Positions 22,750 through 48,933 of a stretch of 51,997 nt of DNA are shown in pieces; position 1 is the first letter of the stretch; every line of letters starts with the position of its first letter. The translations under genes were made by a program, and so were the position numbers. A model generated the notes under the pieces. It was not told where the DNA came from. It ran no database searches and saw nothing but the letters and a program-made list of their open reading frames with translations. Origin of the DNA: Chthonomonadales bacterium (GTDB lineage: Bacteria > Armatimonadota > Chthonomonadetes > Chthonomonadales > CAJBBX01); NCBI GenBank assembly GCA_037443035.1, contig JBBIPC010000024.1:1-51997 (forward strand), read 5' to 3'.

Positions 22750-23871
22750 TCACTTTCGCGCCGAGGGCAACAGCTCGAACCTGCCTTCGACGGTATTCCA
22801 CGCGTCGTTGGAGCCGGTACCGCTGAACACCATCACGAACCGAACTCCATCTGCGGACCACCACGCAGGAGCGAAGTTCCAATAGAACGTAGTGGGTTCG
22901 ATGTTGCCGCTCCCCCAGTTCTCGGAGTAGAGCACCGTATGCCAGGGACCCCACAGATGGGGCGCCTCGAACACACCGATATTCCCGGCTGCCGTACGGT
23001 GGTGCTCGGTGATCAGCAGGTACCGGCGCAGGCGAGGATTCCAAGCGACGCTGACCATCATTGCGCCTCCGGACGGGTCGCTCCAGATGGGTTTCCGTGC
23101 CGCGGGTGACGCTGTCCACTGGGGGCGACCGTATGTATCCAGTCCTGCGTAGAACGTCCAGGCACGCGGGAGCCCAATCTCGTGTTTCCTGGCGCGTAAG
23201 AGCACAACCTCTCCCGGCACGTGTACATCCCACCGGCTTGTCTTGATGTTGGTCGCGCACACATAGACGTAGCCATCTACGGCAAGGCCATGCTCCTTTC
23301 CGTACTGCACGAACGTCGGAGCGAAGAACCCGGAGTCGGGGTGGGCGAAGTCAGCAGCCGCGAAACGCACACTCGTTGGTGCCCAGCTCCTGCCAAGATC
23401 GCGGGACTGCCATAGCTCCTGGAAGACGTATGCACTGGTCGTAGACCCATCGCCAGTCCGCCATGCATACAGAGCACGATTGACCGCGAGGATGCCGTAG
23501 CACTTGCCCGTGAAGGCAGCCGGTGCTTCTGCGGCAAAGCCTCCGGCCACGTTAGCGCCCTTGTAGTTGCTCGGTGAACCCTTGATGACGGCGAAGCCGC
23601 AACTGACCCTGCCGCGCTCGTCCGTGCCACCGAAGCCGCCGCCGTCGCCCCATGATGTGTACTGGTTACCATCGTGGCCCCAGGTCATCGGCCAGTTGTC
23701 GCTTCCAGGCGCCAGGCGTCGGCGTGACCGGAAGTCGAAGACCATGCGTCGGATGACCGTGCTGGGCGGATAGGGCGCGCCACGCACGATCCGCGCGCCC
23801 ACCGACGATAGACACACTCCTGCGTAGGAAGCATCCACCAATACCGCCAGACCTAAGAGTCGCCATCCCAT
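22750..23871 (-). CDS. Secreted DUF4185-like beta-propeller protein
   Basis: Signal peptide, 'GSDNWPMTW..DG..YTSWGDGGGF', 'F.QYG', 'D.YVYV' and 'EAP..WGPW'. Confidence 0.7.
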   Translation of the reverse strand: MGWRLLGLAVLVDASYAGVCLSSVGARIVRGAPYPPSTVIRRMVFDFRSRRRLAPGSDNWPMTWGHDGNQYTSWGDGGGFGGTDERGRVSCGFAVIKGSPSNYKGANVAGGFAAEAPAAFTGKCYGILAVNRALYAWRTGDGSTTSAYVFQELWQSRDLGRSWAPTSVRFAAADFAHPDSGFFAPTFVQYGKEHGLAVDGYVYVCATNIKTSRWDVHVPGEVVLLRARKHEIGLPRAWTFYAGLDTYGRPQWTASPAARKPIWSDPSGGAMMVSVAWNPRLRRYLLITEHHRTAAGNIGVFEAPHLWGPWHTVLYSENWGSGNIEPTTFYWNFAPAWWSADGVRFVMVFSGTGSNDAWNTVEGRFELLPSARK

Positions 23872-23994
23872 GCGTCCATCCTACCGCACCCGACACTTCC
23901 GCGCCATGGCTGCACAGACGCGGCCTGGATGACAACGGCCGACACACGTAGCCGGCATGGCGACAAGCGCATCGCGTGTGACCAGGCTCAGACC

Positions 23995-24023
23995 TTGCAT
24001 CCGTCTGCCGGTCATGTTAGAAT
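23995..24023 (+). promoter_or_regulatory. Putative sigma70 promoter for the glycyl-radical-enzyme operon
   Basis: TTGCAT (23995-24000), a 17-bp spacer, then TAGAAT (24018-24023), with an extended -10 TG at 24015-24016. Confidence 0.55.
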
Positions 24024-24086
24024 GACAGTACACAGCGCCAGCGGCGGATAACGTGCCGGGGTGTCGGCTGGCGGGAGGTTGTGAGG

Positions 24087-26333
24087 ATGGGCGAGACCGA
24101 GATGAGCCGCAGGGAGTTCGTGAAAGCCACAGGAGCTTCGGCGGTCGGTGGTGCGGTGTTCTTGCTGGGCGCAGAGAGCGCCTTGCGTGCGGCTCCTGCG
24201 GACGAATCCCAGGCGCTGGCCGGTTGGGGTAGCCCGTGGCGGCCGCCGTGTCCCAAACGCCTGTCGGATACGACACGCGCCCTGGCGCATCGCGCCATCT
24301 CCGGTGAGCACGGCAAAGGGCTCGTACCCGCTCCTGTGGAATTGAGTCCGTCCGACCGGGCCCTGTCGCCGGACCTCCGCTATGCCCGTGCTGTCTATCT
24401 TGCCGCCCAACATGCTCCCCTGCGCATCCTACCGAACGAGCTCGTTGTCGGCTCAGCTTCGCTGCTGGAGGCTGCACGTCATGTGACGCCCATAGCAGGC
24501 GATCCCAGCACGAGCCACACGACAATCGGTTTCGCCAGGGGTCTCGTCGAGGGCTACAACGGCATCCGTCGCCGAATCGCCGAACGGAAAGCACGGGGCG
24601 GGCTCACGGCAAAGCAGACGGAATTCCTCCGTGCCATGGAAACCTGCCTCGACGCTGCCGACGTCTGGCGCAAGCGGTACCTGGCAGCGCTTCACGAGCT
24701 GGCATCCACTTCCAGCGGCAAGGAACGTGCCAACTACCTGCGCGTCGCGAGGACCCTGGAACGCGTGCCGAATGACCCACCACGGACCTTCCACGAAGCG
24801 GTGCAGTCGCTGTGGTTCCTTTGGGCGTTTCAGAGGCTCATGGGGAACTGGTCGGGCATAGGGCGCATTGACGAAATGCTCGGTCCGTATCTCAAGGCGG
24901 ATCTGGCAGCGAAACGCCTTACCCTGGACGAGGCACGCGAGATCCTGGCGCACTTCTGGATCAAGGGCTGTGAGTGGATCGGTGTGCCGGGTGCGGGCGG
25001 TGGATCGGGCGACGCGCAGTTCTATCAGAACGTGATACTTGCGGGTGTGAATGCGCGGGGTCAGGAAGTCGCCAACGAGGTGACCTACCTCGTGCTGGAC
25101 ATTGTGGAGGAGCTGCACATCAGCGACTTTCCCATCGCCGTGCGCCTGAATAGCCGGACGCCGGACCGTCTCCTTCGTCGTGTCGCGGAAGTTCAGAAGC
25201 ACGGCGGAGGTATTGTGGCGGTGTACAATGAGGAAAAGGTCATCGCTGGCTTGGAGAAGATGGGCTTCCCAACCGAGGAAGCTAGATGCTTCGCCAACGA
25301 CGGCTGCTGGGAGGTGCTCATCCCGGGCAAGACGGCCTTCTCGTACGTGCCCTTCGACATGCTGTCCCACGTCCAGAACGCTCTGGGACTCCACACCGGC
25401 GCCGTTCCCAACTACCCAACCTTCGAAGCATTCTACGCGGCTGTCATGGACGGCGTAAGACGTCACGTGGACTGGCATCACGCGATGGCGGACAATTGGT
25501 GCACGCAGGGGCCGCCCACTCCCCTCCTATCGCTGCTGGTGGACGATTGCATCGAGAAGGCTTGTGGGTACTACGAGCGTGGCGCCCGCTACTACATCCT
25601 GTCTCCGCACGCCGGTGGCATGGCCGATGTCGCCAACAGCCTCCTCGTCATACGCGATCTCGTGTACGAGCGACGCGTCCTCGGACTTCAGGACTTCGCG
25701 GAGATTCTGCGAGGGAACTGGACAGGGCAAGAGCACCTGCGCCGCAAGATCGCGCGCACGTTCGAGTTCTACGGTAACGATGACGACGCGTCCGACGCCA
25801 TGATGCAACGAGTGTTCCATGACTATGCCGCCATGGTAGCCACGGTTCCGGAGCGCAAGGGGGTGCTTCGGCCTGCGGGTATCAGCACTTTCGGGAGGCA
25901 GATCGAGTGGGCGTCTCAACGTGCGGCAACTGCTACGGGCCAACACGCAGGCACGTATCTTGCCAGCAACTGCTCTCCGACGCCAGGCACGGACCTTCAT
26001 GGACCGACGGCAGTCCTGCGGTCGTACTGCAAACTCGATTTCACCCAGACCCCCAATGGCGCCACGTTGGAGCTGAAGATCCACCCCGAGTCCGTCAAGG
26101 GCGAGAAAGGCGTGGCTGCCCTGGTCGGCCTGCTGAAGGGTTTCGTCGCCCTTGGCGGCTGGTACGTCCATGTGGACGTCATGGACACGGACCTTCTGCG
26201 GGACGCTCAAGAGCACCCCGAGAAGTATCCGAATCTTTCGGTGCGGATCGCGGGCTGGTCGGCACGCTTCGCCACGCTGAACAAGCAGTGGCAGGACATG
26301 GTCATCGAACGTACCCAGCAGTTCATGGCGTAG
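24087..26333 (+). CDS. Glycyl-radical enzyme (PFL-like superfamily) with a twin-arginine-type N-terminus
   Basis: 'P.TFHEAVQSLWF', 'GRIDEML.PY', Cys loop 'NDGCWE', Gly loop 'PEKYPNL.VRIAGWSA.F' and canonical end 'VIERT'. N-terminus SRREFVK followed by a hydrophobic stretch. RBS GGAGG 8 nt before ATG 24087. Confidence 0.92.
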   Translation: MGETEMSRREFVKATGASAVGGAVFLLGAESALRAAPADESQALAGWGSPWRPPCPKRLSDTTRALAHRAISGEHGKGLVPAPVELSPSDRALSPDLRYARAVYLAAQHAPLRILPNELVVGSASLLEAARHVTPIAGDPSTSHTTIGFARGLVEGYNGIRRRIAERKARGGLTAKQTEFLRAMETCLDAADVWRKRYLAALHELASTSSGKERANYLRVARTLERVPNDPPRTFHEAVQSLWFLWAFQRLMGNWSGIGRIDEMLGPYLKADLAAKRLTLDEAREILAHFWIKGCEWIGVPGAGGGSGDAQFYQNVILAGVNARGQEVANEVTYLVLDIVEELHISDFPIAVRLNSRTPDRLLRRVAEVQKHGGGIVAVYNEEKVIAGLEKMGFPTEEARCFANDGCWEVLIPGKTAFSYVPFDMLSHVQNALGLHTGAVPNYPTFEAFYAAVMDGVRRHVDWHHAMADNWCTQGPPTPLLSLLVDDCIEKACGYYERGARYYILSPHAGGMADVANSLLVIRDLVYERRVLGLQDFAEILRGNWTGQEHLRRKIARTFEFYGNDDDASDAMMQRVFHDYAAMVATVPERKGVLRPAGISTFGRQIEWASQRAATATGQHAGTYLASNCSPTPGTDLHGPTAVLRSYCKLDFTQTPNGATLELKIHPESVKGEKGVAALVGLLKGFVALGGWYVHVDVMDTDLLRDAQEHPEKYPNLSVRIAGWSARFATLNKQWQDMVIERTQQFMA

Positions 26334-26336
26334 TAC

Positions 26337-27788
26337 GTGAACGTCCAGCCCTTCGGCAGAACGTTGGATGCCCGCAAGAGGCACGTGACGTTACCTGCGA
26401 ATCCCGATTACAACGCGCCTCCCTTGACGGTCGAGTGCCTGGCTAGGCTGTTCGGCCACGACAGTTTCAATATCCTCGTAGCCAGCGAGCCCAAAGAATC
26501 CGCCACGCACTGGGAACTCTACACCTACGCGCAAAGCGGCTGTCTAGCGGCCTATCTTCCAGGTTACACACCGGCGGAGATCGTATCGGGTGCCGCCGTG
26601 GCGGACGGCCAATGGCATTACTGCGCCATGACGTTCGATGGCCGGACAGTGAAGCTCTACGTGGACGGTAAGGAAGTGGCCTCCGAACGAGTGCGTCGGC
26701 GAACCGGGGTGGCTTCGGTGGCGGGCCCTTTGTGCGTGGGTCACGTCGCCGGAACGACCCTGGGTTGCGATGGCGAGCTGGACGAAGTGCGAGTGTCTAG
26801 CGTGATCCGACAGACGCAGGCCATGCCGATGCAGCCCTACGAGGACGATCGGGACACACTGGCGCTGTGGCACTTCGATCCGGTCTTTGCAGGCGTGGGC
26901 GCTTCGAGGGAGACGGACCCATTTCGCGCTGGAGCTGACGCGGCGTTGCAGGCCAGGAAGGCCCTGGGTGCTGCGGAAGCGAGCGCCGTGCTCGTCTTCG
27001 ACTGTATGGACGGGGGCGCTCAATCCAGGATACGCATGATAGAGGGTATAGGTTGGTTTTTCGATACATCGCTGGTGTTCGGATGCAGCGGATTCGGGCC
27101 CATCACGCGACATGGCTCAGGCGCGACGGTCGGCGTCCTCGCGCTTGGAGAGGAGTTCACGGTGCTATCGGCGGTAGCGGACGTCGCAGGCGACCATCGT
27201 GCGTGCGGCAGGACTCTCGCCACCACCCTGCGTGGGATCGAGGAGTCACGCAAAGGCCTGGGACGACTTGTGCTGCTGATGGGTGACTGCCATGTTCCAG
27301 CCAACGACGCTCTCGTTCAGGGCTTCTCGGAGAGTTTCGGCGAGAATGTGCCCGTCGCGGGTGGATCATGTCCGCAAGACGGTCTCCTGTACTACAAGGG
27401 TGTCGTGCGACAGTCGGCGAACCTGGCATTGTTGCTGGCAGGCCGGTTCGCGGTGCAGATGGCCATGGGCGCGGCGGCAACCGCCGACGGGATCGCATCC
27501 TCTCGCCGCGAAATCGTCGCCCGTGCCTGCCCGTCAGACGGGGCAGATCTGTTGCTGCTGTTCGACTGCGTCAGCCGCAAGCAGGAGGGAGCGATCACAG
27601 CACCGGAGGAGGCGAGACAGCAGCAGTTCAAGGGCTTATCTGGGCCGGTATTCGGCTTCTACGGCTCCGGCGAGATAGGCGCTGAGGCAGTGGGGACGTC
27701 GGCCAGGGGAGTGGGCGGTCACCTCGTCGCAGTCGCCCTTACGGCCTCGCCCGACAGCCCGGCCCCGCCACCGCCTCACGCCCGATAG
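26337..27788 (+). CDS. LamG-like jellyroll + FIST_N/FIST_C fusion protein
   Basis: LamG motifs 'LTVECL', 'DGQWHY.AMTFDG...LYVDG', 'G.LDEVRVS' and 'TLALWHFD'. FIST motifs 'GVGAS...P..AG..AA..A...LG', 'GCS..G.I', 'PVAGG', 'LLFDCVSR' and 'GFYGSGEIG'. Confidence 0.8.
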   Translation: MNVQPFGRTLDARKRHVTLPANPDYNAPPLTVECLARLFGHDSFNILVASEPKESATHWELYTYAQSGCLAAYLPGYTPAEIVSGAAVADGQWHYCAMTFDGRTVKLYVDGKEVASERVRRRTGVASVAGPLCVGHVAGTTLGCDGELDEVRVSSVIRQTQAMPMQPYEDDRDTLALWHFDPVFAGVGASRETDPFRAGADAALQARKALGAAEASAVLVFDCMDGGAQSRIRMIEGIGWFFDTSLVFGCSGFGPITRHGSGATVGVLALGEEFTVLSAVADVAGDHRACGRTLATTLRGIEESRKGLGRLVLLMGDCHVPANDALVQGFSESFGENVPVAGGSCPQDGLLYYKGVVRQSANLALLLAGRFAVQMAMGAAATADGIASSRREIVARACPSDGADLLLLFDCVSRKQEGAITAPEEARQQQFKGLSGPVFGFYGSGEIGAEAVGTSARGVGGHLVAVALTASPDSPAPPPPHAR

Positions 27789-27922
27789 CCGGCTTGGCGG
27801 ACGTAAGCGAGACCGGAACGTCGAGCGACCGTGTGCGTGTCTGGCGGCCGATCCTGCCGAACGCCGGACGGCACGAGTCTGGCTCGCTGCCAGATGCATA
27901 CAAGAGCTGGGAGATTGAAAGG

Positions 27923-30900
27923 ATGAAATCCTTCGCACGTTCCATGTGCCGTGCTAGTTTGCTGTTCCTATCGGTCGTCTGTTGGCCGGGGCGGCTGACG
28001 GCGGTGCCCCAGTACGTGTGGCTCGAAGGAGAGGCTCCGACAAGCGCCAATTTGAAGGTGACTGCGGCAGGCTGGGGGCGCAAAGAGTTCCTATCCGGTG
28101 AGCAGTGGCTGCACGTGTCCATCGATGCCGACAAGGTCGCCGCAGAGCTACCTGCAGAAGGCGGCTGGTTCACTTACACGTTCAACATACCGTCAGCCGG
28201 ACAGTGGGAGATCTGGAACCGCGTGGGTTTCGAGTTCGTCCGGTCGCCGTTCGAATGGCGGATGGACGACGGGCCATGGGCTACCGTTACGCCAGACGAG
28301 CTGACCACGGACCTCATGGAGATCTCCGAGTGGTGCGAGGCGGCATGGTTGAAGCTGGGCGTGCGCGAGCTCGGTGCCGGTCAGCATGCGCTGACGATAC
28401 GCTTGCCTCTCACGAAGGACGAGAAGGGCACTCCCGCACGCGTTCTCTATGCTTCCGATGCCCTATGTCTGACGGCGGGATCGTTTCATCCTCATGGCAA
28501 GCTCAAGCCGGGCGAGGTTGCGAGAACTCCGCAGGACGAAGAAGCAGCAAAGCACGTCTTCGAGCTGCCAGAGCCTGGTGCCAATGGACAACGGACCTCT
28601 GTGAAGCTCGAGGGGCTTTGGGAGGTATGCCGCCACGATGAACAGACACCGCCTGCCGACGTGGCAGTGCCCATGGAAGGGTTGCCCGAAGATCCCTATT
28701 GGACAGCCATTCCCGTACCGAGCGACAAGAACCGGGTCCGGCCGGACCTTCTCTTCGCCCATCGGCTGTGGTATCGAACCCGGGTAAGGGTACCGGCATC
28801 CTGCGCAGGACGTTCCTTCTATCTCACTTTCCCGCAGAACAATCTCAACACGACGGTGGTCGTCAACGGCAGCCTGTGCGGCTTCGGCAAGAACCCCTTC
28901 GCACGCTTCGACGTGGACATCACGAAAGCCGTGCGGCCAGGCGTCAACGAAATACTCGTGGGGATACGGGACGCGTGGTACGGCTTCTCCACCAATCCGA
29001 CGAACCCCATGAAGCTTCGACGGAAGTTCAACCTACCGGTGCGGTTCTTCGAGGAGGGCTTTCAGGATCTTGCGTATCCCATCTGGAATCACGCCCAATC
29101 CGGCATTCTCTTCACTCCCGTACTGACCTGCGCTGGTTCGGCCTACACCGCCGACACGTTCATCAAGCCCTCCGTGGCGCGGAAGGAGCTTGCGGTGGAA
29201 ACCGAGTTAGCAGCCCCCGCGGCTGCCGGATTCAAGGGCGAACTCGTAGCCGAAGCGCTCGACGAGAACACGGGCAAAGTGGCGCATCGGCTGCCGCCTG
29301 TGAGCGTGGACGTTGCCGCCGGGCAGCGAAAGAAGCTCGAGATTCGAGGCCCATGGCCCAACCCGAAGCTCTGGTGGCCCGATCAGCCCCATATGTACCG
29401 GCTCCGCCTTACACTCTTGGCCGATGGCAAGCCGGTTGATGTGGCGGAAACGCCGTTCGGATTCCGAGAATGGACCGCAGACGGAACGTACTTCCGCCTG
29501 AACGGGGTGAAATGGCGCCTCTGGGCCGATCTGAAGGAGGGTAACACACCGGCCGAGTGGCTGGCCAACTACCGGCGCACTGGCCAGCGCATGCAGCGGT
29601 TCTGGGGCATGAGCTGGATGGGCATGTCTCCCGACGAAGCGCTGGACTTCTTCGACCGGAACGGGGTGGTCATCCGCAGGTCCGGTCTATTGGATGGTGA
29701 GCGGATCGGTTACTTCGCCATCGAGAACGATCCGGACCTGCGCCGGCTCTACGGCTCCGAAATCAAGATGGATCTCATGCGCAACTGGCGGGATCAGGTT
29801 GTGGCGCAGGTCAAGGGAGAGCGCAATCACCCGTCTATCCTCATCTGGTCCATCGAGAACGAGTGGCTCTACATCAACTGCATCAACCTCTACGGACACC
29901 TCATGGATGCCTTCGAAAAGGAGGTGCAGACGGTGGCCGACGCCGTAAGGGCTGTGGATCCCACGCGCCCGGTCATGAACGACGGCGGAGGTGCGCACAA
30001 AGCCCAGACCATGCCGGTTCACGGTGACCACTACGTCTTCGATCCAGCCGACAGCCGCTACCCGGATCTAGCGTACGAAGCCAATCCAAAGGGCGGCGGG
30101 CGCGGACGCTGGGAATGGGATGGTAAGCGGCCACGGTTTCTCGGAGAAGACTACTACGCCAATGGTATCAATCCGTTCGACTACGCCTACTTCGGTGGCG
30201 AGGAGACTTTCCAAGGCAAGGCGGCTGCCCGCCGGGCAGCGGGGATCATCGCTCGCATGCTCAACGAGGGATACCGATGGGCCGGCTACGCTGCTTGGCA
30301 TTTCTGGATGGGTGAACGTGAGGCCGTGGGACAGTACGCCTCCAATGCTGCTCGAGCGGTCTTCTGCAGGCAGTGGAACTGGACGTTCGGAGCAGGGCAA
30401 AAGGTCCAGCGCACGTTCAGGATCTACAACGATACGCAGTACCCCGATCCGCTGACGTTCCGGTGGGAGCTGACGGTGGGAGGCAAGCCCATCGGTTCCG
30501 AGAAGATGGAACTGCGCGTTCCTCCAGGGGAGTATGTGGAGCTCCAGCGGACCCTGACCATGCCATCCGGCATCGCATCTGGCAAGCGTGCGATCGGCAA
30601 GCTCACACTTATCCTGAGCGCCGCTGGCAAGGAGGTGTTCCGGGACACGAAGCCTGTCTCCGTGCTGGCATCCGCGAAGCCGTCACAGGCAGTGGCCAGC
30701 CTCGGTGCGAACGGGCTATGCGTCTACGATCCCTCTCAGACGGTCACGAAGTACCTCCTGGCGCGCGGAGTTCGCTTCACGTCGCTCAAGAGTCTGGCCG
30801 CCATACCTTCGGCAGCCCGGGTCTTGGTGATCGGGAAGGACGCTCTAGACGCTCAGACGAGCACAACTAGCCGTCTAGCTGCGTGGGCAGCGCCAGGACG

Positions 30901-32983
30901 CCGTGTGGTGGTGCTGGAACAGAAGGAACCTCTCCGGTACCAGGGACTACCTGTTCCCATCGAGAGCACGGACCACGAGGGACGAACTGCGTACATCGAG
31001 GATGCATCCCACCCGCTATGCGCGGGGCTTCAGTCAGCCGATTTCTGGACGTGGGGGGTGAATATCCCTGTCTACAGGGCGGCCTACAGCAAGCCGTCCC
31101 AAGGCGCCCGCTCGCTGATCCAGTGCCACGCACGCTTGGCGGACTCCGCGTTGTTGGAATTACCAGCGGGTACGGGCGTTCTCCTCCTATGTCAGCTTAC
31201 GGTAGGGGCCAACCTGGCGACGAACGCCGTGGCGCAGCGAGTCTTCGATAACCTGCTTGAGCGGGCTGCCACGTACAGGCTGCGTGTTCGCTCCGTGACG
31301 ACCTGTGCCGACGCAGATCCTCAGTTCGCGAAGGCGCTGGACGCTGTGGCGCTGAAGCACACGAAGACGAAGGATCCTTTGGCTGCCTTGCAGACGCCGG
31401 GGCCAGATCGGCTTGCCATCATCGAAGCAACGCCCACGAACCTTAGTCTCCTGGCGGCCAACATGGAGCGTGTCCGTGCCTTCACGCAGGCAGGTGGCTG
31501 GATCCTCTTGCACGGACTGACGCCCGAGGGACTTCAATCGTACAACCGTATCGTGGGCTTCGAGCACATGATCCGGCCCTTCCGTATGGAGCGCGTGACG
31601 CTTCCTCCTCATCGGAGTGCCCTTACCGCCGGTCTCACACTCACCGATGTGGTCATGTACAGCGGCGAGAGGATCTTCGGATGGACGTCGGACGAGTATC
31701 TCGCGTCCGATATCTTCTCCTATTGCGTGGATTACGAGGATGTGGCACCGTTCGGGAAGATGCCCAGCGACTACCACTACAACATCGTCAACGGCATGTA
31801 CTCGGCGGACGCGTGGAAGTATATCTTCTCGTTCGACCTGAATACCGACCGACCCGAGTTCACGATGGAATTGCCCAAAGAACAGGAGATCGTGCGGATG
31901 GACTGGGCCGGAAACGCCTTCTACCATCTCGTGACGAAGATCAGCCTGTCGTCGGAGCGCGGGCAGACCGTTACCTTCGACACCAAGCCGGGTAACGACG
32001 AGCAGACTTTCGACGTAAAGCCGCCACTGCAGGGAAGGCGCATCACCCTGAAGATCCTGGATTGGGCCAAGGTCAGCCGCGGAGCCAACGTGGTCGGCAT
32101 TGACAACCTGCGCTTGTACGCGAGAAGGCCTGTGGATTTCGAGACACGCGTCAAGCCCCTGGTCAACGTGGGAGCGATGATGGAGTACCCGATGGGCAAG
32201 GGCGGCGTCGTCCTGTGCAATCTGCTCTTCAAGGACCGGGAGGCCGTGCCGATCAACGCTACGAAGAAGTTGAGAATACTCTCGGTCCTGCTGGCCAATC
32301 TCCAGGCGCCGCTAGGGCATGGGAGCGGCGTCATCGCCGGAGCAGACCTCCAGTACGAACCGCTGGACATCTCGAGCAAGGCGAATCAGTACCGAAACGA
32401 AACGGGCTGGTATGGAGATCCGAGCTTGACTCTGGCCGCGCTCCCGGCAGGCAAGAACACCTTCGCCGGCGTTCCCTTCATCGTTCACGACTTCCCGACC
32501 TCGCCAGTACCCACAGTCATCATGCTGGGCGGGCCAGGCGTGCCAGGGAACCTGCCTGATTCGGTCCATGATATCCCAGTAGGGAAGAAAGCTGACGCGC
32601 TGTTCTTCCTCCACGCAGCCCGAGTAGACCAGCCACTCAATCCCGACGAGAGGCGCCAGCGCAGACGGGTCGAGCTGTGTCGCTACGTCGTTCATTACGC
32701 CGACGGTTCGAACGTGGACGTGCCGGTATATCTCGACGAAGACATCCGTGACTACCGTCAGGCGGAACCTACGGCGATACCCGGTGCGCAGATCGCCTGG
32801 ACTCGACCCTACGAAGGGAAAGGACTGCACGCCGTCATCTACGCGAAGAAATGGGATAACCCTCGCCCCGATGCAGTCATACGGAGCGTGGATCTCCTCT
32901 ACGGCCCGGAGCGAAGAGGCGTACCCGCTCTCATCGCCATGACAGCCGCCAGCAAGCCGCACAACATACCGAACCGGCAGTAG
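27923..32983 (+). CDS. Large secreted GH2-like (beta-galactosidase-type) multidomain glycoside hydrolase
   Basis: Signal peptide, sugar-binding domain 'LWYR..V.VP', 'PKLWWPD.P.MY', 'FGFRE', 'F.LNG' and the GH2 acid/base motif 'RNHPSILIWSIENE'. Long C-terminal accessory domains follow. Confidence 0.8.
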   Translation: MKSFARSMCRASLLFLSVVCWPGRLTAVPQYVWLEGEAPTSANLKVTAAGWGRKEFLSGEQWLHVSIDADKVAAELPAEGGWFTYTFNIPSAGQWEIWNRVGFEFVRSPFEWRMDDGPWATVTPDELTTDLMEISEWCEAAWLKLGVRELGAGQHALTIRLPLTKDEKGTPARVLYASDALCLTAGSFHPHGKLKPGEVARTPQDEEAAKHVFELPEPGANGQRTSVKLEGLWEVCRHDEQTPPADVAVPMEGLPEDPYWTAIPVPSDKNRVRPDLLFAHRLWYRTRVRVPASCAGRSFYLTFPQNNLNTTVVVNGSLCGFGKNPFARFDVDITKAVRPGVNEILVGIRDAWYGFSTNPTNPMKLRRKFNLPVRFFEEGFQDLAYPIWNHAQSGILFTPVLTCAGSAYTADTFIKPSVARKELAVETELAAPAAAGFKGELVAEALDENTGKVAHRLPPVSVDVAAGQRKKLEIRGPWPNPKLWWPDQPHMYRLRLTLLADGKPVDVAETPFGFREWTADGTYFRLNGVKWRLWADLKEGNTPAEWLANYRRTGQRMQRFWGMSWMGMSPDEALDFFDRNGVVIRRSGLLDGERIGYFAIENDPDLRRLYGSEIKMDLMRNWRDQVVAQVKGERNHPSILIWSIENEWLYINCINLYGHLMDAFEKEVQTVADAVRAVDPTRPVMNDGGGAHKAQTMPVHGDHYVFDPADSRYPDLAYEANPKGGGRGRWEWDGKRPRFLGEDYYANGINPFDYAYFGGEETFQGKAAARRAAGIIARMLNEGYRWAGYAAWHFWMGEREAVGQYASNAARAVFCRQWNWTFGAGQKVQRTFRIYNDTQYPDPLTFRWELTVGGKPIGSEKMELRVPPGEYVELQRTLTMPSGIASGKRAIGKLTLILSAAGKEVFRDTKPVSVLASAKPSQAVASLGANGLCVYDPSQTVTKYLLARGVRFTSLKSLAAIPSAARVLVIGKDALDAQTSTTSRLAAWAAPGRRVVVLEQKEPLRYQGLPVPIESTDHEGRTAYIEDASHPLCAGLQSADFWTWGVNIPVYRAAYSKPSQGARSLIQCHARLADSALLELPAGTGVLLLCQLTVGANLATNAVAQRVFDNLLERAATYRLRVRSVTTCADADPQFAKALDAVALKHTKTKDPLAALQTPGPDRLAIIEATPTNLSLLAANMERVRAFTQAGGWILLHGLTPEGLQSYNRIVGFEHMIRPFRMERVTLPPHRSALTAGLTLTDVVMYSGERIFGWTSDEYLASDIFSYCVDYEDVAPFGKMPSDYHYNIVNGMYSADAWKYIFSFDLNTDRPEFTMELPKEQEIVRMDWAGNAFYHLVTKISLSSERGQTVTFDTKPGNDEQTFDVKPPLQGRRITLKILDWAKVSRGANVVGIDNLRLYARRPVDFETRVKPLVNVGAMMEYPMGKGGVVLCNLLFKDREAVPINATKKLRILSVLLANLQAPLGHGSGVIAGADLQYEPLDISSKANQYRNETGWYGDPSLTLAALPAGKNTFAGVPFIVHDFPTSPVPTVIMLGGPGVPGNLPDSVHDIPVGKKADALFFLHAARVDQPLNPDERRQRRRVELCRYVVHYADGSNVDVPVYLDEDIRDYRQAEPTAIPGAQIAWTRPYEGKGLHAVIYAKKWDNPRPDAVIRSVDLLYGPERRGVPALIAMTAASKPHNIPNRQ

Positions 32984-33107: not shown

Positions 33108-34991
33108 ATGGACTCAGACGAACGGCTTACGCGCCGGGAGGTCCTGCAGAAAGGCGCGCAGGTGAGCGGTGCCGTCGTGGCGTTGGCGACGACGTCGGAT
33201 GCCCAAGGCGCTGCCGTCGCAGCAGAGGGGTGTCTACTGGTGCGGGGCGGACTTCCGGAGGCGAGTATCGTTGTGGCCGGGGATGCGCCGCCCGCCGTGC
33301 GATTCGCGGCTCAGGAACTCCAGAGCCACATCGAACGCATGACCGGCGCACAATTGCCCATCGTCGCCGATAGTGCCCAGGTCAAGGGGCCTCGCATCCT
33401 TGTGGGCGAGAGCGCCATGACGCGCCGACTCGGACTGCGAAGCGATGTGTTCCGGTCGCAGGAGTATCTTGTCCGCATTCGTTCCGACACGATCGTTCTC
33501 ATGGGCCGTGACGCAACCACGGGACAGCGCTCAAGGGCAAACGAAGGGGACGCAACAGCACGAACGGAGCCACCAGGGGCCTACGAGGAACAGGGCACTT
33601 GCTACGCCGTATACGACTTCTTGGAGCGGTTCTGCGGCGTGCGCTGGTACGCTCCTGGTGAGCTCGGCCTCATCTGTCCGAAGCGGCGCACCCTGCGCGT
33701 AGCAGGTCCCGATGTGCGTCGCGCGCCGGCGTTCAAGTTCCGGCAGGGCACGTATCTTCCTGTCTACGGAATGCTCAAGGAGATCTGGGATTCTCCGACT
33801 GCAGAAGAAGTGCGCCTGTTCGCATGCCGTATGCGCCTGGGCGGCCAACCGTACGCTGCCAATCACTCCTTCTACGGATACTACGATCGCTTCTTCCAGC
33901 GCAACCCGCAGCATCCCGAGCTTTTCGAGGCGGAGCACCCCGAATGGTTCGCAAGAGGTTACTCCGGTCAGCCGCCCCAGATGTGTTACACCAACCCTGG
34001 TTTCATCGCCCAGGTCATTCAGGACGCACGCGACTACTTCGACGGCAAGGGGGCCAAACCGGGCGCACAGGCGAACGGGGACTTCTTCGCCCTCGTGCCT
34101 ATGGACAACAGTTCATGGTGCCTTTGTCCGACCTGCCAGGCGGAGCTGAACGCCGACGAGAAGAACAGCCCTCATTTCTCCAACGGTTGGGCAAGCGATT
34201 ACATCTTCGGGTTCGCCAACAAGGTGGCACGGGAGATTGGCCGAACCCACCCCGGCAAGTACCTGGCCACGCTGGCGTACTCGTCTTACGCCTACTATCC
34301 TCGCCGAACGCGCTTGGAATCCAATATCGCCGTGCAGCTATGTCTCCACACGCGAAACTGGTGGGCTCCTGCCATGGAGCGCAACGACATGGCGATCTAC
34401 AAGAGCTGGACCACCAAGGAGAAGGACCGCCCCATCTATCTGTGGCTTTACTACACTTTTCCCGAGGAGATCGCCATGAACCAGGGGTGGCACTGCTTCC
34501 CTGGATTCTTTGCACATACGCTGGACCGCCAGTTCGAGATGTTCGCACGCGACGGTATCAGAGGTGTGTTCCTGAACAATCTTGGTGAGTACCTCGACTC
34601 TTACTTGACGTTTCGCCTCCTGGACGATCCCACGCTGAACGTGGATCGGATGATCGAGGAGTTCCACAAGCTCTACTATGGCGCTGCTGCGGAACCCATG
34701 CGGAGGCTGTATCTGGCCATCGAGGCGACCTTCTGTAACCCGGCCAACTACCCCGAAACGATCCGCAACGGTAACCGACATGAACACCAAACGGAAGAAC
34801 TGGCCTGGCAATACCTAGGAACTGCCGAGCGTATGGCAGCGTTCGGTACGCTCATGGAAGAGGCGGTGCGGTTGGCAGGTTCCGAGATGGAGCACCGCCG
34901 CGTCGCATTGTTCCGTCGTGCTATATGGGATTACATGGTGGAAGGCCGCCGTATGTGGGAATCGAAACAGAAACTGCCGCCCCGAACCTAG
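33108..34991 (+). CDS. DUF4838-domain protein with Tat signal and GH20/GH67-like N-terminal domain
   Basis: LTRREVL twin-arginine motif, 'AA.ELQ.HI..MTGA.LPI', 'GT.YAVY.FLE...GVRWY.PG', 'P.F..R', 'HPEWFA', 'Q.C.TNP', 'D....CxCxxC' and 'LAY'. Confidence 0.85.
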   Translation: MDSDERLTRREVLQKGAQVSGAVVALATTSDAQGAAVAAEGCLLVRGGLPEASIVVAGDAPPAVRFAAQELQSHIERMTGAQLPIVADSAQVKGPRILVGESAMTRRLGLRSDVFRSQEYLVRIRSDTIVLMGRDATTGQRSRANEGDATARTEPPGAYEEQGTCYAVYDFLERFCGVRWYAPGELGLICPKRRTLRVAGPDVRRAPAFKFRQGTYLPVYGMLKEIWDSPTAEEVRLFACRMRLGGQPYAANHSFYGYYDRFFQRNPQHPELFEAEHPEWFARGYSGQPPQMCYTNPGFIAQVIQDARDYFDGKGAKPGAQANGDFFALVPMDNSSWCLCPTCQAELNADEKNSPHFSNGWASDYIFGFANKVAREIGRTHPGKYLATLAYSSYAYYPRRTRLESNIAVQLCLHTRNWWAPAMERNDMAIYKSWTTKEKDRPIYLWLYYTFPEEIAMNQGWHCFPGFFAHTLDRQFEMFARDGIRGVFLNNLGEYLDSYLTFRLLDDPTLNVDRMIEEFHKLYYGAAAEPMRRLYLAIEATFCNPANYPETIRNGNRHEHQTEELAWQYLGTAERMAAFGTLMEEAVRLAGSEMEHRRVALFRRAIWDYMVEGRRMWESKQKLPPRT

Positions 34992-35131
34992 CTAGTCAGA
35001 CGCGCCGAGCCGGGTTTCCCCCGACTGGTCGCTGGCGAGGCTGCCAAGCGACGCACCATAGTGGGACTGACGTACGTGAACGCCGCTGTAAGAGACGAAG
35101 CGGATGGTATCGTACTCTGAGAGGATGGGGT

Positions 35132-38038
35132 ATGCCGACGAGTAATCCGATGGACTCTAGTGACAACCGCCCGAGTGATGCGAAGCCCACGATGCAGGCG
35201 ACAGCCATTGTCGTTCCGCCAGATGTTGCGTCCATCGACTCACTGCACCGTGATTTCAGACCGATGCCGCGAAAGCTGTTGCTGCACCCGGACGTCCAAG
35301 ACCACCTCGATCCCTCTGCTGTTCCCACGAAGCGGCTCTCCATCGTGTTGCAGCACTTGGCGGCACACGGTCGCACATCACGGGTCAAAGGCTGTGGCGA
35401 TGCGCAGAATCGAGGTTGGAGACGCTCACCGCTCGGGGGGAATGGCCCTTACCACTATTATCTGTGGTGGGCACCTGCTGGCACCCCGCAGACGCGGAAG
35501 CTACACCTTCCGGACGGCGCCATCGTCGTCCGCGACGTGCGACACCACGACGATCATTCACCTCTCCACGCTGGAAATCGCAGTGAGTACTTGGAGCTCA
35601 GCCAGAGAGAGATTCTTGGGAATGGCATCGGTGAGGAGCCTTGGACAGACGAGCAGAGGGCGTATGTCCAGAGTTCGGACGCGATACGGGTCGTACTCGG
35701 GCGGCCAGGTTCAGGGAAGACCACGGTCCTCTGGAATGCTGTGGAAGCTCGCAGTCACGAGCGGGTGTTGTATCTGACATGGTCTGGGCGGCTCCGTGCA
35801 ATGACGGAGGAGCGCATCGCGGCCTTCGGCTCGCCCACGAGCACCATCCAAACACTGACGTTTCATGAGTTTCTCGGCGAGCTAAGCGGTCACGATATTC
35901 CACTGCGGCCGTATCGTGACATCCTGGATGCATTCCTTCAGGCGATTCATCGGCTTCCCGACAGTGAGCTGGGACCGTGGAAAAGTCGCCGGGAGACATT
36001 GTTCGCGGAGCTGCGCGCTTTCCTTATTGGCCATGCGACCGTACCTGACGGCTTGGAGCCTGTACCCCGGCTCTCTGATGAGGCCTATCGTGCGCTGCGC
36101 GGGGAGACTATTGGCGGGGAATGTGTTCGAGCGTTACTGCGCATTTACCGCCTGCTGAAGCAGCGGGGCCGCCTGGGCACGCTCTTCCCAGAGTTCGTGG
36201 CGGTCAAAGCAGCCCATGAGCGTCTCGCCGCCGGCACATTGCCGGACCGATACGAGCGCTTCGATCGGGTTGTGTTGGACGAAGTACAGGACCTGACACC
36301 CTGCGAGATGAGCGTCATACTCGCGTTCTGCCACTGCATGGCGTCGCGGACGGGCCGTGCACCATGGATACTCATGGCAGGTGACAGCGGACAGACGGTG
36401 CGACCCACCGGCTTCGATTGGGGCACCCTCAACGGAAGCATCTCGGCTACGCTGGGGAGACCTACGCGGTACGATCTTCGCCAGAGCTTGCGCTGTCCCG
36501 AGCCCATCGCCCGTGTCGTCGCCCGAGCTGATGCTCTCTACAAGGAGCTCACGAAGGATCTGCACCCCGACAAACAGCTTCAGTACATTGAGGCATTGCC
36601 CGGGGAGGATGTCCAACTAGGTGCGGAGGAGATTGGGAACTACGCGCTTGTGTACGTGACTCTGGCGGATGTGTCGGAGGCTGTAGAGCTCCTGGAGAGC
36701 CTCGAGCAGATGGACGCTCAGCAGACCGCGGTTGTGACACCGTCCCCAGTGCTCCCCTCCTGGCTTGGTGTTGAGCACCGCGACCAGGTCCTTACTCCTG
36801 CCATAGCAAAGGGTCTGGAGTTCGAGACGGTCATTATCCTCGAGCCGGGCAAGGTCGTCCAGCAGGTCCGCGGCCGGCAGACCGATAATCCGTACGAGTG
36901 CTTGGCCGACTTGGAGCGCCGTCTCGTGATTGACGGTCTTCGCGTCGCAGCCAGCCGTGCGACGCAGGTCCTCGTCTTTGTGGACATCGCACCCGATGAC
37001 GAGACTCTCCGCATGTCCCAGGAGCTCCTCGGCGACTACCAGCCCATGGACTTGGGCGAGCTGCTCGCGTTTCTCGGCGAGGAAGAGGCTCCGCTCTACC
37101 AGCGGATTCGCGATCGGCTCGACGAAGCGGAGCGTCTCTTCGATGAGCTTCCACGCCGGGCGTGGCATCGTGCCTATCAGGCATTGGTCCTGGCCCGCGG
37201 AGGTGGGGGTGCCACAGCACAGGCAGAACCCCAGCAGGCGCTAGATGCTGCTCGCATGGTGCTTCGCTTCGCCGCTTCGTGGCTGGCGTCCGGCGTGCCT
37301 CGGGGCATCAGTCGCGACATGATCATAGATGGCGCCAGTGAGGCGCTGGACAATGCGTCACTCGCACCAGAGCGTCGCCTATTCGACGCGTTCCTGGCTT
37401 GGACGTCCCACCCGCACACCGCGGCATACGCATTCCTCGATACGGTCTGCGAGTACTGCGACGGCCAACGCAAGAAGCCGGAGTGGCTGGACGCTGGGCT
37501 GCGGTTGCGCCAGCAGGCGCTTCGCAAGTTCCTCATGGATGGGCCGCGCTCTGTCGAACATGCCCCCAAATACGTAGGCAATGTCGAGGGCTGGCTATCT
37601 GCACTGGGGTACTCGGCCGATAGAGGGAAACTGGCGGATAACCTACGCAGCATCGCCTTCGAGACGTTGCTGGAAAACGGCCGCCTGGAATCGGCGGAGG
37701 AGCTGCTCTCGAGCGTTTGGCCGAGGGACCGACTGCGCCGTGCAAGGCTGCGGGAGAAGCAGGGACGTCATGAGGCCGCGGCGCGTTTGTATGAGCGGGT
37801 GGGGCGTCAGCAGGATGCTCTCCGCAACTGGCGGAGGGCGGCCGCGTGGGACGAAGCCTATCGTCTCGCGACCGACGCTGATGAACAGGCGGACCTGGCA
37901 TGGCTTCGGGAAGTGCAGAAGCTGATGGGACGCCGCCCGCCCGGTATACGTCGTAGGCTGTCACCCGCAGAGGCCATGAAACTCGCTCAACTGGTGAAGG
38001 ACTGTACGCAGGCATCCTCCCAGACGGAAGAAGACTGA
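35132..38038 (+). CDS. SF1 (UvrD-like) helicase with a RelE-like N-terminal domain and a TPR-like C-terminus
   Basis: Walker A GRPGSGKTT, motif Ia VLYLTWS, Walker B VVLDEVQD, motif III AGDSGQT, motif IV LRQSLRCP, motif V AKGLEF and motif VI VAASRA. The C-terminus has helical repeats (AARLYERVG..DALRNWRRA..W.EA). The start is uncertain. Confidence 0.8.
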   Translation: MPTSNPMDSSDNRPSDAKPTMQATAIVVPPDVASIDSLHRDFRPMPRKLLLHPDVQDHLDPSAVPTKRLSIVLQHLAAHGRTSRVKGCGDAQNRGWRRSPLGGNGPYHYYLWWAPAGTPQTRKLHLPDGAIVVRDVRHHDDHSPLHAGNRSEYLELSQREILGNGIGEEPWTDEQRAYVQSSDAIRVVLGRPGSGKTTVLWNAVEARSHERVLYLTWSGRLRAMTEERIAAFGSPTSTIQTLTFHEFLGELSGHDIPLRPYRDILDAFLQAIHRLPDSELGPWKSRRETLFAELRAFLIGHATVPDGLEPVPRLSDEAYRALRGETIGGECVRALLRIYRLLKQRGRLGTLFPEFVAVKAAHERLAAGTLPDRYERFDRVVLDEVQDLTPCEMSVILAFCHCMASRTGRAPWILMAGDSGQTVRPTGFDWGTLNGSISATLGRPTRYDLRQSLRCPEPIARVVARADALYKELTKDLHPDKQLQYIEALPGEDVQLGAEEIGNYALVYVTLADVSEAVELLESLEQMDAQQTAVVTPSPVLPSWLGVEHRDQVLTPAIAKGLEFETVIILEPGKVVQQVRGRQTDNPYECLADLERRLVIDGLRVAASRATQVLVFVDIAPDDETLRMSQELLGDYQPMDLGELLAFLGEEEAPLYQRIRDRLDEAERLFDELPRRAWHRAYQALVLARGGGGATAQAEPQQALDAARMVLRFAASWLASGVPRGISRDMIIDGASEALDNASLAPERRLFDAFLAWTSHPHTAAYAFLDTVCEYCDGQRKKPEWLDAGLRLRQQALRKFLMDGPRSVEHAPKYVGNVEGWLSALGYSADRGKLADNLRSIAFETLLENGRLESAEELLSSVWPRDRLRRARLREKQGRHEAAARLYERVGRQQDALRNWRRAAAWDEAYRLATDADEQADLAWLREVQKLMGRRPPGIRRRLSPAEAMKLAQLVKDCTQASSQTEED

Positions 38039-38048
38039 CCAGCAGCCT

Positions 38049-39419
38049 CTAGAACTCCCTGTCAACCGTCTTGCCAGGCTGTGGCACGGGGTAACGGCCG
38101 TCGGGCCCGGCACGCAGAGGAGCGGGCGAGTCGGCGGTCAGCTTGTCAAGGCCGGGCGCTAGCTCATGGGGGTGGTTCAGGGCTTGTTCGTAGGTGATGG
38201 TCTGGCCGGTATGAGCCGCCATCCGGCCCATGACTGTCACGAGGCTTGCTTCGGCTCCGCGTTGCACTTCGTTGTAGGGTTTGTTGGACCGAATCGCCTC
38301 CAGGAGTTCCCGCCATTCCAGTTGGTAAGGGCTGGGTTCGCGCTGGCCATAGGCCCATGCGACGGCCGATGGGTCTTTCAGATGCCCCTTGTAGATCCGC
38401 GATCTGGCAGGTGCGTGTCCGTTTTCCGAGATGATGGCAAGCCCTTTGGTCCCGTGGGCGTAACTGGCAAACGCGTTCTGGCATCCGTCCATGCATCGGC
38501 CCTCGAGGAAGAGCTTCGTACCGTCGGCAAAGGTGTACTCGACGGAGTATGCGTCGAAGTTCTGATCCACGGAATCGCCCCGGTAGTGGCGTCCGCCCAG
38601 CGCGTGCGCCTGTATCGGCCAGGAGTTCTTCATCCAGCAGCACTCGTCTATGTGATGGATGTAGAAATCGCTGAACGCACCCCCGCCGGCCCAGAGGAAG
38701 CTGTGAAACCGCTGGATCTGGTATAGCAGTTCCGAGATGCCATCGGGCTTCGAACCCGACGAGAAGTAGCCAATGGGGCCGTGCATGCGATAGGCACGAA
38801 GGAGCACCAGGTCTCCCGCATCTCCAGCTTGAATGCGCTCGAACAGCGCGCGCCGGGCGACGCAATGGCGACACATGAGGCCAACGCCAACCTTCAGACC
38901 CTTGGCATCCGCCTGTTTCCCCAGCTCCATCATGCGCCGCGAGGTCGGACCGTCCACGGAGATGGGCTTTTCCATGAAAACATTGAGTCCCTTGGCAATG
39001 GCGTAGGTGAAATGGACCCATCGAAACGCAGGGGGTGTGGCGAAGATGGCAACGTCACCTGGTCTGAGACAATCCATGGCCTTGGCGTAGGCGTCGAGTC
39101 CCAGGAATCGCCGCTCCGGTGACACGTCTATCTGGACCTTGAGGGCATCTTTGAGGCCGTTGTAGCTGCCCTCCAGGCGTTGGGGGAAGAGATCCGCCAT
39201 GGCAACCAGCTTCAGCGGACCTACCCCGGAAGCGAAGGCATCATATACGGCGCCAGTGCCGCGTCCACCGCATCCGATGAGCGCCATCCGGATAGTATCG
39301 TCTTGTGCCAAATGCACATAGGGTATAGCTGCCGCCGTTAGCGCCGAGGCGGCTCCTGCACTGCCGAGACCTCTAAGGAGGGTCCTTCGGGATACGCGGA
39401 GATTGTCTTCCTTGTTCAC
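38049..39419 (-). CDS. Gfo/Idh/MocA-family oxidoreductase with Tat signal
   Basis: SRRTLLR twin-arginine motif, 'ALIGCGGRG', 'ATPPAFR', 'VFMEKP' and 'H.ID'. GTG 39419 follows RBS GGAGG. Confidence 0.92.
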   Translation of the reverse strand: MNKEDNLRVSRRTLLRGLGSAGAASALTAAAIPYVHLAQDDTIRMALIGCGGRGTGAVYDAFASGVGPLKLVAMADLFPQRLEGSYNGLKDALKVQIDVSPERRFLGLDAYAKAMDCLRPGDVAIFATPPAFRWVHFTYAIAKGLNVFMEKPISVDGPTSRRMMELGKQADAKGLKVGVGLMCRHCVARRALFERIQAGDAGDLVLLRAYRMHGPIGYFSSGSKPDGISELLYQIQRFHSFLWAGGGAFSDFYIHHIDECCWMKNSWPIQAHALGGRHYRGDSVDQNFDAYSVEYTFADGTKLFLEGRCMDGCQNAFASYAHGTKGLAIISENGHAPARSRIYKGHLKDPSAVAWAYGQREPSPYQLEWRELLEAIRSNKPYNEVQRGAEASLVTVMGRMAAHTGQTITYEQALNHPHELAPGLDKLTADSPAPLRAGPDGRYPVPQPGKTVDREF

Positions 39420-39503
39420 GCATGCCTCCAAGAATCGTCGCGAATGTCCGCGGGCTTCGTCGGTATTGCCCGGATTACCCGCATGACAGGCTCGACGGCT
39501 GGG

Positions 39504-48605: not shown

Positions 48606-48687
48606 GGGGTGCCAAGACCTCCGTTATCGCGAAAGGAACATGCCGTAGTCATACCCCATGACCGCCACCAACACGCGCTTGCCATCT

Positions 48688-48878
48688 CGCCGGTGGTTGA
48701 GTAAGCCCGACGCCCGCTGTCGGGCTGTATCGAAACCACCGGCCCGGTTGCCCCTCTCGGGCTGTATCGAACCCACCTGCCCAGGCGTCGCCATGACCCC
48801 GATCGAGACGCCCTCGCCATACCACCGGTCGCTTCGATACGCCCCGTCGCTTCGCGCCGGGACACTCAACGACCGGCG
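48688..48878. repeat. REP-like inverted-repeat element with an internal partial duplication
   Basis: Left arm CGCCGGTGGTTGAGT-hairpin(AGCCCGAC/GTCGGGCT)-GTATCGAA. The reverse complement of the right arm reads CGCCGGTCGTTGAGT-hairpin-GTATCGAA. Direct repeat CGGGCTGTATCGAA(A/C)CCACC at 48721 and 48758. Confidence 0.7.
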
Positions 48879-48933
48879 TAACAGCACGGTCCTGCGGAGA
48901 CGGGGTACGATAGTCGGTCAGAACGGCCCAGCC

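Follow-up and report, generated by a model that had tools for sequence, protein, structure and literature searches.

Can an enzyme that works through an oxygen-labile protein-backbone radical be exported from the cell in its active form? The question is raised by a gene for a glycyl radical enzyme (GRE) which begins with a twin-arginine translocation (Tat) signal peptide, and which lies on contig JBBIPC010000024.1 (assembly GCA_037443035.1) of a Chthonomonadales bacterium, hereafter the host. The stretch analyzed, 51,997 nucleotides long, is referred to as the window. We conclude that the leader-bearing GRE is a real, conserved feature, unpublished within the literature searched, and represents a new predicted compartment for a known kind of enzyme. 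Judging from sequence comparison, export of the GRE in active form is quite probable; the whole statement, a Tat-exported active GRE acting on a carbohydrate-derived substrate, is favored on balance, with somewhat less assurance.

No exported GRE was found in the literature searched, subscription papers and supplements lying outside the search. The 2026 GRE review (PMC13450708) mentions no location of GREs other than the cytoplasm and microcompartments, and the terms "periplasm", "signal peptide", "twin-arginine" and "secret" occur there zero times. In PMC5606693, GRE and export terms are both present, but in unrelated passages.

The enzyme and its twin-arginine leader

The gene, bounded by an ATG at 24087 and a TAG at 26333, matches PF02901 with 318.9 bits (E 1e-94) and PF01228 with 85.9 bits (E 3e-24). 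All 36 PDB sequence matches of its product are glycyl radical proteins; a diol dehydratase and HypD rank highest, with E values near 1e-80. The AlphaFold2 model of the mature protein (pLDDT 94.8, pTM 0.94) finds glycerol dehydratase, 1r8w, as its top Foldseek match, with a TM of 0.87.

Both radical loops are intact and lie where originally predicted (Table 1). Gly723 and Cys407 are invariant throughout 108 aligned rows, and together with Glu409 they are kept in 37 out of 37 leader-bearing rows. In the form Cys407-Trp-Glu409, found in 100% of the clade, the enzyme carries the CxE motif, which marks GRE eliminases and isomerases (PMC13450708, sections 5.6 and 5.7). His144 is the counterpart of a glycerol dehydratase residue, His164, whose role is taken from the same review, and is present in all 37 leader-bearing and all 33 other clade rows. 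Clade-invariant residues also include Trp255, Trp297, Asp309, Trp408, Phe418, Tyr420, His508, Phe602 and Arg604; many invariant aromatic and polar residues fall on strands which bear the active site in relatives and, on that basis, may line the pocket.

The GRE scores below the cut-off of all 12 NCBIfam GRE models that it matches; for HypD, CutC, the two sulfopropanediol dehydratase models, IAD and HPAD it reaches 191–331 bits, against cut-offs of 1000–1150. The argument originally offered for an uncharacterized subclass, a Trp in both loops, is weak: the Archaeoglobus enzyme 2f3o also reads RVAGWS, and CWE and GW recur in signal-less members of the clade. The enzyme is classified, by its scores and motifs, as a member of the PFL-like superfamily of the CxE eliminase/isomerase type, placed outside pyruvate formate-lyase (PFL), HypD, CutC and the other modeled families.

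The N-terminus reads MGETEMSRREFVK, followed by an uncharged Gly/Ala-rich stretch and by ALRA/AP, which corresponds to an uncharged h-region and a c-region with a basic residue, probably cleaved after Ala35. The first 45–50 residues score 19.1–19.5 bits against TIGR01409, above the cut-off of 16.7; against PF10518 the leader reaches 21.8 bits, 0.9 below the cut-off of 22.7. When leaders of nine relatives were scanned with TIGR01409, 4 exceeded the cut-off, 3 fell below it and 2 gave no match. The motif was sought within the first 45 residues of the closest homologues, taken as the best 120 of 2024, and was found in 88 of them, bearing out both the S-R-R-x-F leader of the original prediction and its retention by orthologues. 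The same pattern occurs in 31 out of 1964 internal 45-residue windows of homologues, a chance background, and at the N-terminus of one (P0257) out of 99 more distant full-length GREs. Several of the 32 motif-less homologues look like proteins whose start was called too late. For the host gene, a start 3' of the arginines was rejected, since the GGGAGG ribosome site lies ahead of 24087 and the leader is conserved in homologues.

The 88 leaders share more than the arginines: Phe follows the motif in 96% and Lys is found in 65%, charge is nearly absent at positions +7 to +18, and AxA is present in 65. None of the 88 contains a lipobox, and a plain Sec leader was seen in none of the homologues examined.

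Leaders are found at 26 of 80 GTDB loci, in Armatimonadota, Planctomycetota, Hydrogenedentota, Bacteroidota and Nitrospirota, and were flagged at 25 of 80 loci from JGI metagenomes, one of which (L176) is false. In a tree of 92 rows, from which outgroups, truncated rows and 27 near-duplicate or long-branch rows were excluded, all 36 leader-bearing rows fall within a single 50-row clade (SH-aLRT 97), a pattern that would fit one gain in the NDGCWE/RxAGW clade, followed by losses. Three signal-less members (P0079, P0081 and P0089), which have lost the arginines and partly retain an h-region-like stretch, apparently carry decayed Tat signals. Lentisphaerota-type signal-less members (L042, L044, L049, L052, L059, L066 and P0123) feature a different insert of about 160 residues.

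A second GRE clade, likewise without a characterized member and defined by GCEE/RxGG[FY] loops (P0257, P0289–P0323) and including members from Planctomycetota, Verrucomicrobia and Kiritimatiellales, has the leader in 17 out of 36 proteins, as opposed to 0 out of 83 next neighbors; many of these leaders look short. As branches of support 100 separate this clade from the NDGCWE/RxAGW one, the leader has been attached to GREs at least twice. The residue before the radical Gly is Ala in 33 of 34 leader-bearing rows and Ser in 51 of 55 others; with only 2 independent pairs on well-supported branches (p 0.5), this association may reflect no more than shared ancestry.

Activation and predicted export in the host

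The absence of a radical S-adenosylmethionine (SAM) activase from the window, as originally reported, is confirmed: in a genome-wide scan of open frames of at least 250 residues, no CxxxCx[WYFHM]C frame was found on this contig and 21 were found elsewhere. Another activation route, which had been proposed from this absence, is not supported. The host encodes three unlinked GREs, namely the one described here, a HypD (1243 bits, cut-off 1100) and a short one next to a zinc dehydrogenase, and no adjacent activase was found for any of them, either in flanks of about 1.5 kb for the latter two or in the whole window for the first. The 24 genomes of the host family contain 67 GRE matches (E 1e-30 or better, a few being fragments) and 16 activase matches; GREs and activases are present in the very same 14 genomes, and some genomes have nine GREs and one activase. 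Since both the other host GREs and the host family are equally short of activases, the orphan state is not special to this gene.

The only GRE activase of the host, on contig C14 (80767–81666; L004:1459–2361), is an ordinary, signal-less enzyme scoring 343 bits against TIGR02494 (cut-off 174), and we infer that it activates the exported candidate too. Tat-tagged activases, whose search the original prediction had suggested, were rejected: an RRxF leader was found in 0 of the 38 activases examined. Because activases are signal-less, activation would take place in the cytoplasm.

In other organisms, a signal-less activase lies directly 3' of the GRE at 10 of 26 leader-bearing loci; relatives from Planctomycetota and Bacteroidota have such a dedicated downstream activase. 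Wherever it may lie, an activase is encoded in 26 of 27 leader-bearing genomes. The 10 adjacent activases form a clade of their own (SH-aLRT 100), of which no representative was found in the host or in its four closest named relatives. With a single activase set against as many as nine GREs, from different clades, in one genome, a generalist activase is a candidate explanation. According to section 2 of PMC13450708, activase specificity has received little study and tracks the sequence of the Gly loop; the Gly loops of the three host GREs read RIAGWS, RVAGYS and RVSGFS.

Some further features of these genes were recorded. The short host GRE (708 residues, GCIE/RVSGF loops; contig C29, L002:43–3294) lies directly 3' of a zinc-dependent alcohol dehydrogenase gene and falls below all NCBIfam cut-offs, similar loops being found in several relatives. 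The host HypD gene (contig C13, L001:1333–4878) is followed by an N-acetylglucosamine-kinase-like gene. At L028:10095–13034, directly after a signal-less GRE, an activase is contained in a 980-residue frame with a long C-terminal extension, which is either a fusion or the product of a missing stop.

As for the export machinery, TatC is encoded by the host, as by all 27 leader-bearing genomes, and Omp85 is also present. Targeting to a bacterial microcompartment (BMC) was rejected, as no shell gene was found: the genome, rated 100% complete, gave 0 matches to PF00936. Twenty open frames of the host pass the strict RRxF pattern, and several of them resemble aldo-keto reductases, enzymes usually thought to be cytoplasmic.

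The LamG link and the surrounding genes

Table 1. Position, strand and supporting evidence of features at the GRE locus (window coordinates)
Feature	Position	Strand	Evidence
DUF4185-like protein, divergent, hydrophobic N-terminus	22750..23871	-	ESM Atlas feature match 0.97; no Pfam match
Shine-Dalgarno-like GGGAGG, 8 nt 5' of the ATG, which itself precedes the twin arginines	24073..24078	+	sequence
GRE gene, 748 residues, uncharacterized NDGCWE/RxAGW clade	24087..26333	+	Pfam, NCBIfam, PDB search, model, Foldseek
Tat signal peptide, S-R-R-E-F-V-K	24087..24191	+	TIGR01409, homologue conservation; cleavage site inferred
His144, aligned with His164 of glycerol dehydratase	24516..24518	+	alignment
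Cys loop NDGCWE, single Cys, CxE type (Cys407, Glu409; DGCWE 25299-25313)	25296..25313	+	100% in both clade groups
Gly loop VRIAGWS, radical site Gly723	26241..26261	+	sequence, clade alignment
LamG + FIST/FIST_C protein, signal-less, starting 3 nt after the GRE stop	26337..27788	+	Pfam; LamG at about 26346-26876
GH2-family glycoside hydrolase, large, Sec-like N-terminus	27923..32983	+	profile scans; possible operon partner
DUF4838 protein with its own twin-arginine leader	33108..34991	+	Pfam; leader by eye, fragment scan without match

A LamG domain is inserted near residue 175 in 40 out of the 120 homologues. Of these, 39 carry the leader and the remaining one is apparently cut short at the N-terminus; in the model of a fused homologue the LamG folds confidently (pTM 0.86). 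In the host, a LamG is found in the LamG-FIST protein encoded immediately downstream of the GRE. With 31–52% identity to the inserts of 41 homologues, as opposed to mostly 25–32% for the other LamG of the window, this domain is assigned, by similarity, to the subfamily inserted into the fused GREs. A LamG-FIST gene also lies 3' of the GRE at L165, about 940 nt downstream, and three further pairs of GRE and LamG-FIST proteins (P0007/P0278, P0009/P0273 and P0013/P0283), the two partners of each coming from database contigs of equal length, suggest linkage without proving it. The host arrangement is not an assembly error, since a contig of run X1 spans 23990–28200 with 106 differences and no gaps.

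The two genes share the same frame, 3 nt apart. Read-through of the TAG was discarded as an explanation: ARAGORN detected no tRNA with a CUA anticodon, LamG-FIST orthologues start independently and may be located away from the GRE, and homologous GREs end at the same place.

The LamG-FIST family is small, with 14 near-full-length matches. Sec-like leaders precede the same LamG subfamily in other proteins and are also seen on some FIST homologues, while the host protein has none; the FIST subfamily may thus be extracytoplasmic. We take FIST to be a nitric oxide sensor, and inhibition of GREs by nitric oxide is reportedly the subject of a preprint (10.1101/2025.02.23.639758). One FIST homologue (P0284) is fused to a domain resembling, by eye, the DUF4185-like protein. 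At L165, the two-gene insert between GRE and LamG-FIST (L165:4870–5800) looks by eye like a PIN-type toxin-antitoxin pair.

The other neighbors give a looser picture. The link of the GRE with the GH2 hydrolase is not conserved in the relatives examined. The ESM Atlas cluster matched by the DUF4185-like protein carries PF13810 on 45%; DUF4185 is, we assume, an arabinanase family. Around leader-bearing GREs (97 neighbors scanned of 105 picked) many carbohydrate-related genes were found, including SusD, GH97, GH51-like, GH38, alpha-amylase, sulfatase, 3-keto-disaccharide hydrolase and acetyl xylan esterase, together with many neighbors not related to carbohydrates. In Prolixibacteraceae, two closely related loci have the GRE and its activase placed after SusD and GH97, among exported proteins. 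A carbohydrate-rich setting, in line with the sugar chemistry originally proposed, is encountered both here, with the GH2 hydrolase, and around relatives of the enzyme. A scan for promoters and terminators gave chance-level results only, and no RNA run was listed among the sequencing runs that contain this sequence.

Further along the window, a Gfo/Idh/MocA oxidoreductase with a twin-arginine leader is encoded at 38049–39431 on the minus strand. A frame of 1037 residues at 34925–38038, possibly defense-related, combines a UvrD-like helicase domain with TPR repeats and has weak similarity to HelR. Two DUF6785-DUF6784 membrane proteins are encoded at 2656–4620 (minus strand) and 48658–50862 (plus strand); one of the genes has a prepilin-type N-methylation/DUF1559 gene and a LacI regulator in its vicinity, and the other adjoins the gene of a family 5 solute-binding protein.

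Proposed mechanism, rival explanations and known systems

In the mechanism we propose, the precursor would fold in the cytoplasm, where a signal-less radical-SAM activase, in the host the C14 enzyme shared with the two other GREs, would install the radical on Gly723. The enzyme, folded and bearing its radical, would then be carried to the periplasm by Tat. This scheme suits Tat because the cofactor would form only once the protein has folded, at the expense of SAM and reductant from the cytoplasm. For a GRE, a single installation of the radical suffices for tens of thousands of turnovers (PMC13450708); for this reason Tat would be the only route able to deliver an active enzyme. In the periplasm, the Gly/Cys radical relay, with Glu409 and His144, would drive a redox-neutral 1,2-elimination or isomerization without cosubstrate, under anoxia only. 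The substrate would most likely be polyhydroxylated and carbohydrate-derived, freed by neighboring periplasmic hydrolases. Its binding is probably aided by the LamG module, which many relatives carry as a fusion and which is encoded next to the GRE here.

A bolder version, which we regard as possible but doubtful, holds that pre-activated GREs are exported via Tat in several phyla, from at least two independent origins, that the clade represents a periplasmic radical glycan/glycoside lyase, and that the host activase is a generalist. Here the thiyl radical would take the hydrogen next to the anomeric carbon, Glu409 would deprotonate the hydroxyl, and a C-O bond would break in the manner of YbiW, except that the substrate would be an unphosphorylated sugar or glycoside bound to the LamG module.

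A number of observations weigh against an exported, active, carbohydrate-directed GRE. The host encodes a heme-copper oxidase, so that its periplasm may see oxygen; an enzyme quenched there could not be reactivated, and nothing ensures that activation precedes export. TatC presence does not discriminate, since 36 of the 39 genomes with signal-less members also have it. A clear AxA is missing in 23 of the 88 leaders, and the 50-row clade of leader-bearing sequences also includes 14 nested rows that have no signal. The set of invariant residues is identical with or without leader, and an active site identical in signal-less relatives implies a chemistry that does not depend on export. The C14 activase falls outside the adjacent-activase clade, its orthologues in G068 and G070 lying beside another GRE, and activases are described in PMC13450708 as specific, with few cross-reactions. 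As to the substrate, widely recurring neighbors are limited to the activase and an AraC-type regulator, sugar enzymes are abundant in these organisms anyway, and in the close relatives G013–G015 the GRE and LamG-FIST genes lie on different contigs.

Part of this evidence suits a leader that is functional without exporting the active enzyme, serving as a tether to the inner face of the membrane or as a handle for a chaperone or activase, with the enzyme working in the cytoplasm. NarG offers an example of a twin-arginine remnant that is not exported. Oxygen lability in a host with a terminal oxidase, the signal-less members with the same active site and the 20 RRxF frames of the host, many of them NAD(P)-dependent oxidoreductases by eye, would all be accommodated. 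Against it stand the full tripartite leader, with its conserved Phe and Lys, uncharged h-region and frequent AxA (65/88), the LamG inserts nearly confined to leader-bearing members, the two independent gains, and the decaying signals, which lose the arginines while keeping part of the h-region (P0079, P0081, P0089). We consider this explanation unlikely. Alternatively, the protein could be exported and not work as a radical enzyme, being a binding protein or a non-radical lyase, or could be exported unactivated after loss of its cognate activase. The invariance of Gly723, Cys407 and Glu409 in every leader-bearing row and the dedicated activases at 10 of 26 loci make this very unlikely, notwithstanding the missing cognate-clade activase in the host and its four closest named relatives, and the conflict of one activase for three GREs with the specificity reported in the review. 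On the latter point, the true HypD of the host is equally orphan, and the ratio of 67 GREs to 16 activases in the family points to a generalist activase.

An exported, radical-bearing enzyme might also act on something other than a carbohydrate, such as a sulfonate, an amino acid derivative or a small polyol. The closest solved relatives act indeed on diols, glycerol and hydroxyprolines, the invariant Arg604 could bind an anion, and there is no conserved sugar-pathway neighbor. Against these stand the LamG insertions, the SusD/GH97, GH51-like, GH2 and sulfatase neighbors, and the many invariant aromatic and polar residues on strands that bear the active site in relatives; a substrate of this kind seems quite improbable to us. 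If a GRE is indeed exported, a protein-backbone radical would be seen to survive membrane translocation and to work away from its activase, and the breakdown of glycans in the periplasm, in anoxic sediments and digesters, would gain radical chemistry. Two questions become testable, the lifetime of a glycyl radical without activase and the specificity of activases; a generalist activase, if real, would ease the activation bottleneck named for GRE discovery in PMC13450708.

Comparison with known systems places the enzyme among, and apart from, its relatives. With the B12-independent glycerol dehydratase of C. butyricum (1r8w) and the 1,2-propanediol dehydratase of R. inulinivorans (5i2a/5i2g) it shares the fold (TM 0.87), CxE, Gly loop and His; it differs in having about 25% structural identity, a shorter N-terminal part, Trp for Val in the Cys loop, other residues at further pocket positions and the Tat leader, and it scores 365 bits against TIGR01774 (cut-off 678). 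Trans-4-hydroxy-L-proline dehydratase, HypD (6vxc), is the second-best sequence match (E 1.5e-79) and equally of the CxE eliminase type, but the GRE reaches only 331 bits with the HypD model, well below the separate, true HypD of the same host. From PFL (1h16), which shares the Gly radical domain, it is set apart, as the original prediction had argued, by its single Cys (GCWE) and by 92 bits against TIGR01255, whose cut-off is 994.

The sugar isomerases YbiW (8id7) and PflD (8id0) have CxE in common with the GRE and a TM of 0.82–0.83, with only distant sequence similarity (E 1e-71 to 1e-69). According to PMC13450708, they cleave a C-O bond of a sugar ring in a redox-neutral radical reaction and so set a precedent; their substrates are sugar phosphates, and no export is reported for them there. 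GRE microcompartments, the only compartmentalized GREs in the review, face the same problem of activation away from the cytoplasmic reductant, but the host has no BMC shell gene and the signal is here a twin-arginine one. Tat substrates of the TorA/SufI type share S-R-R-x-F-x-K and the basic c-region residue (PMC7317946); the cofactor here would be a protein-backbone radical in place of a metal, flavin or pterin.

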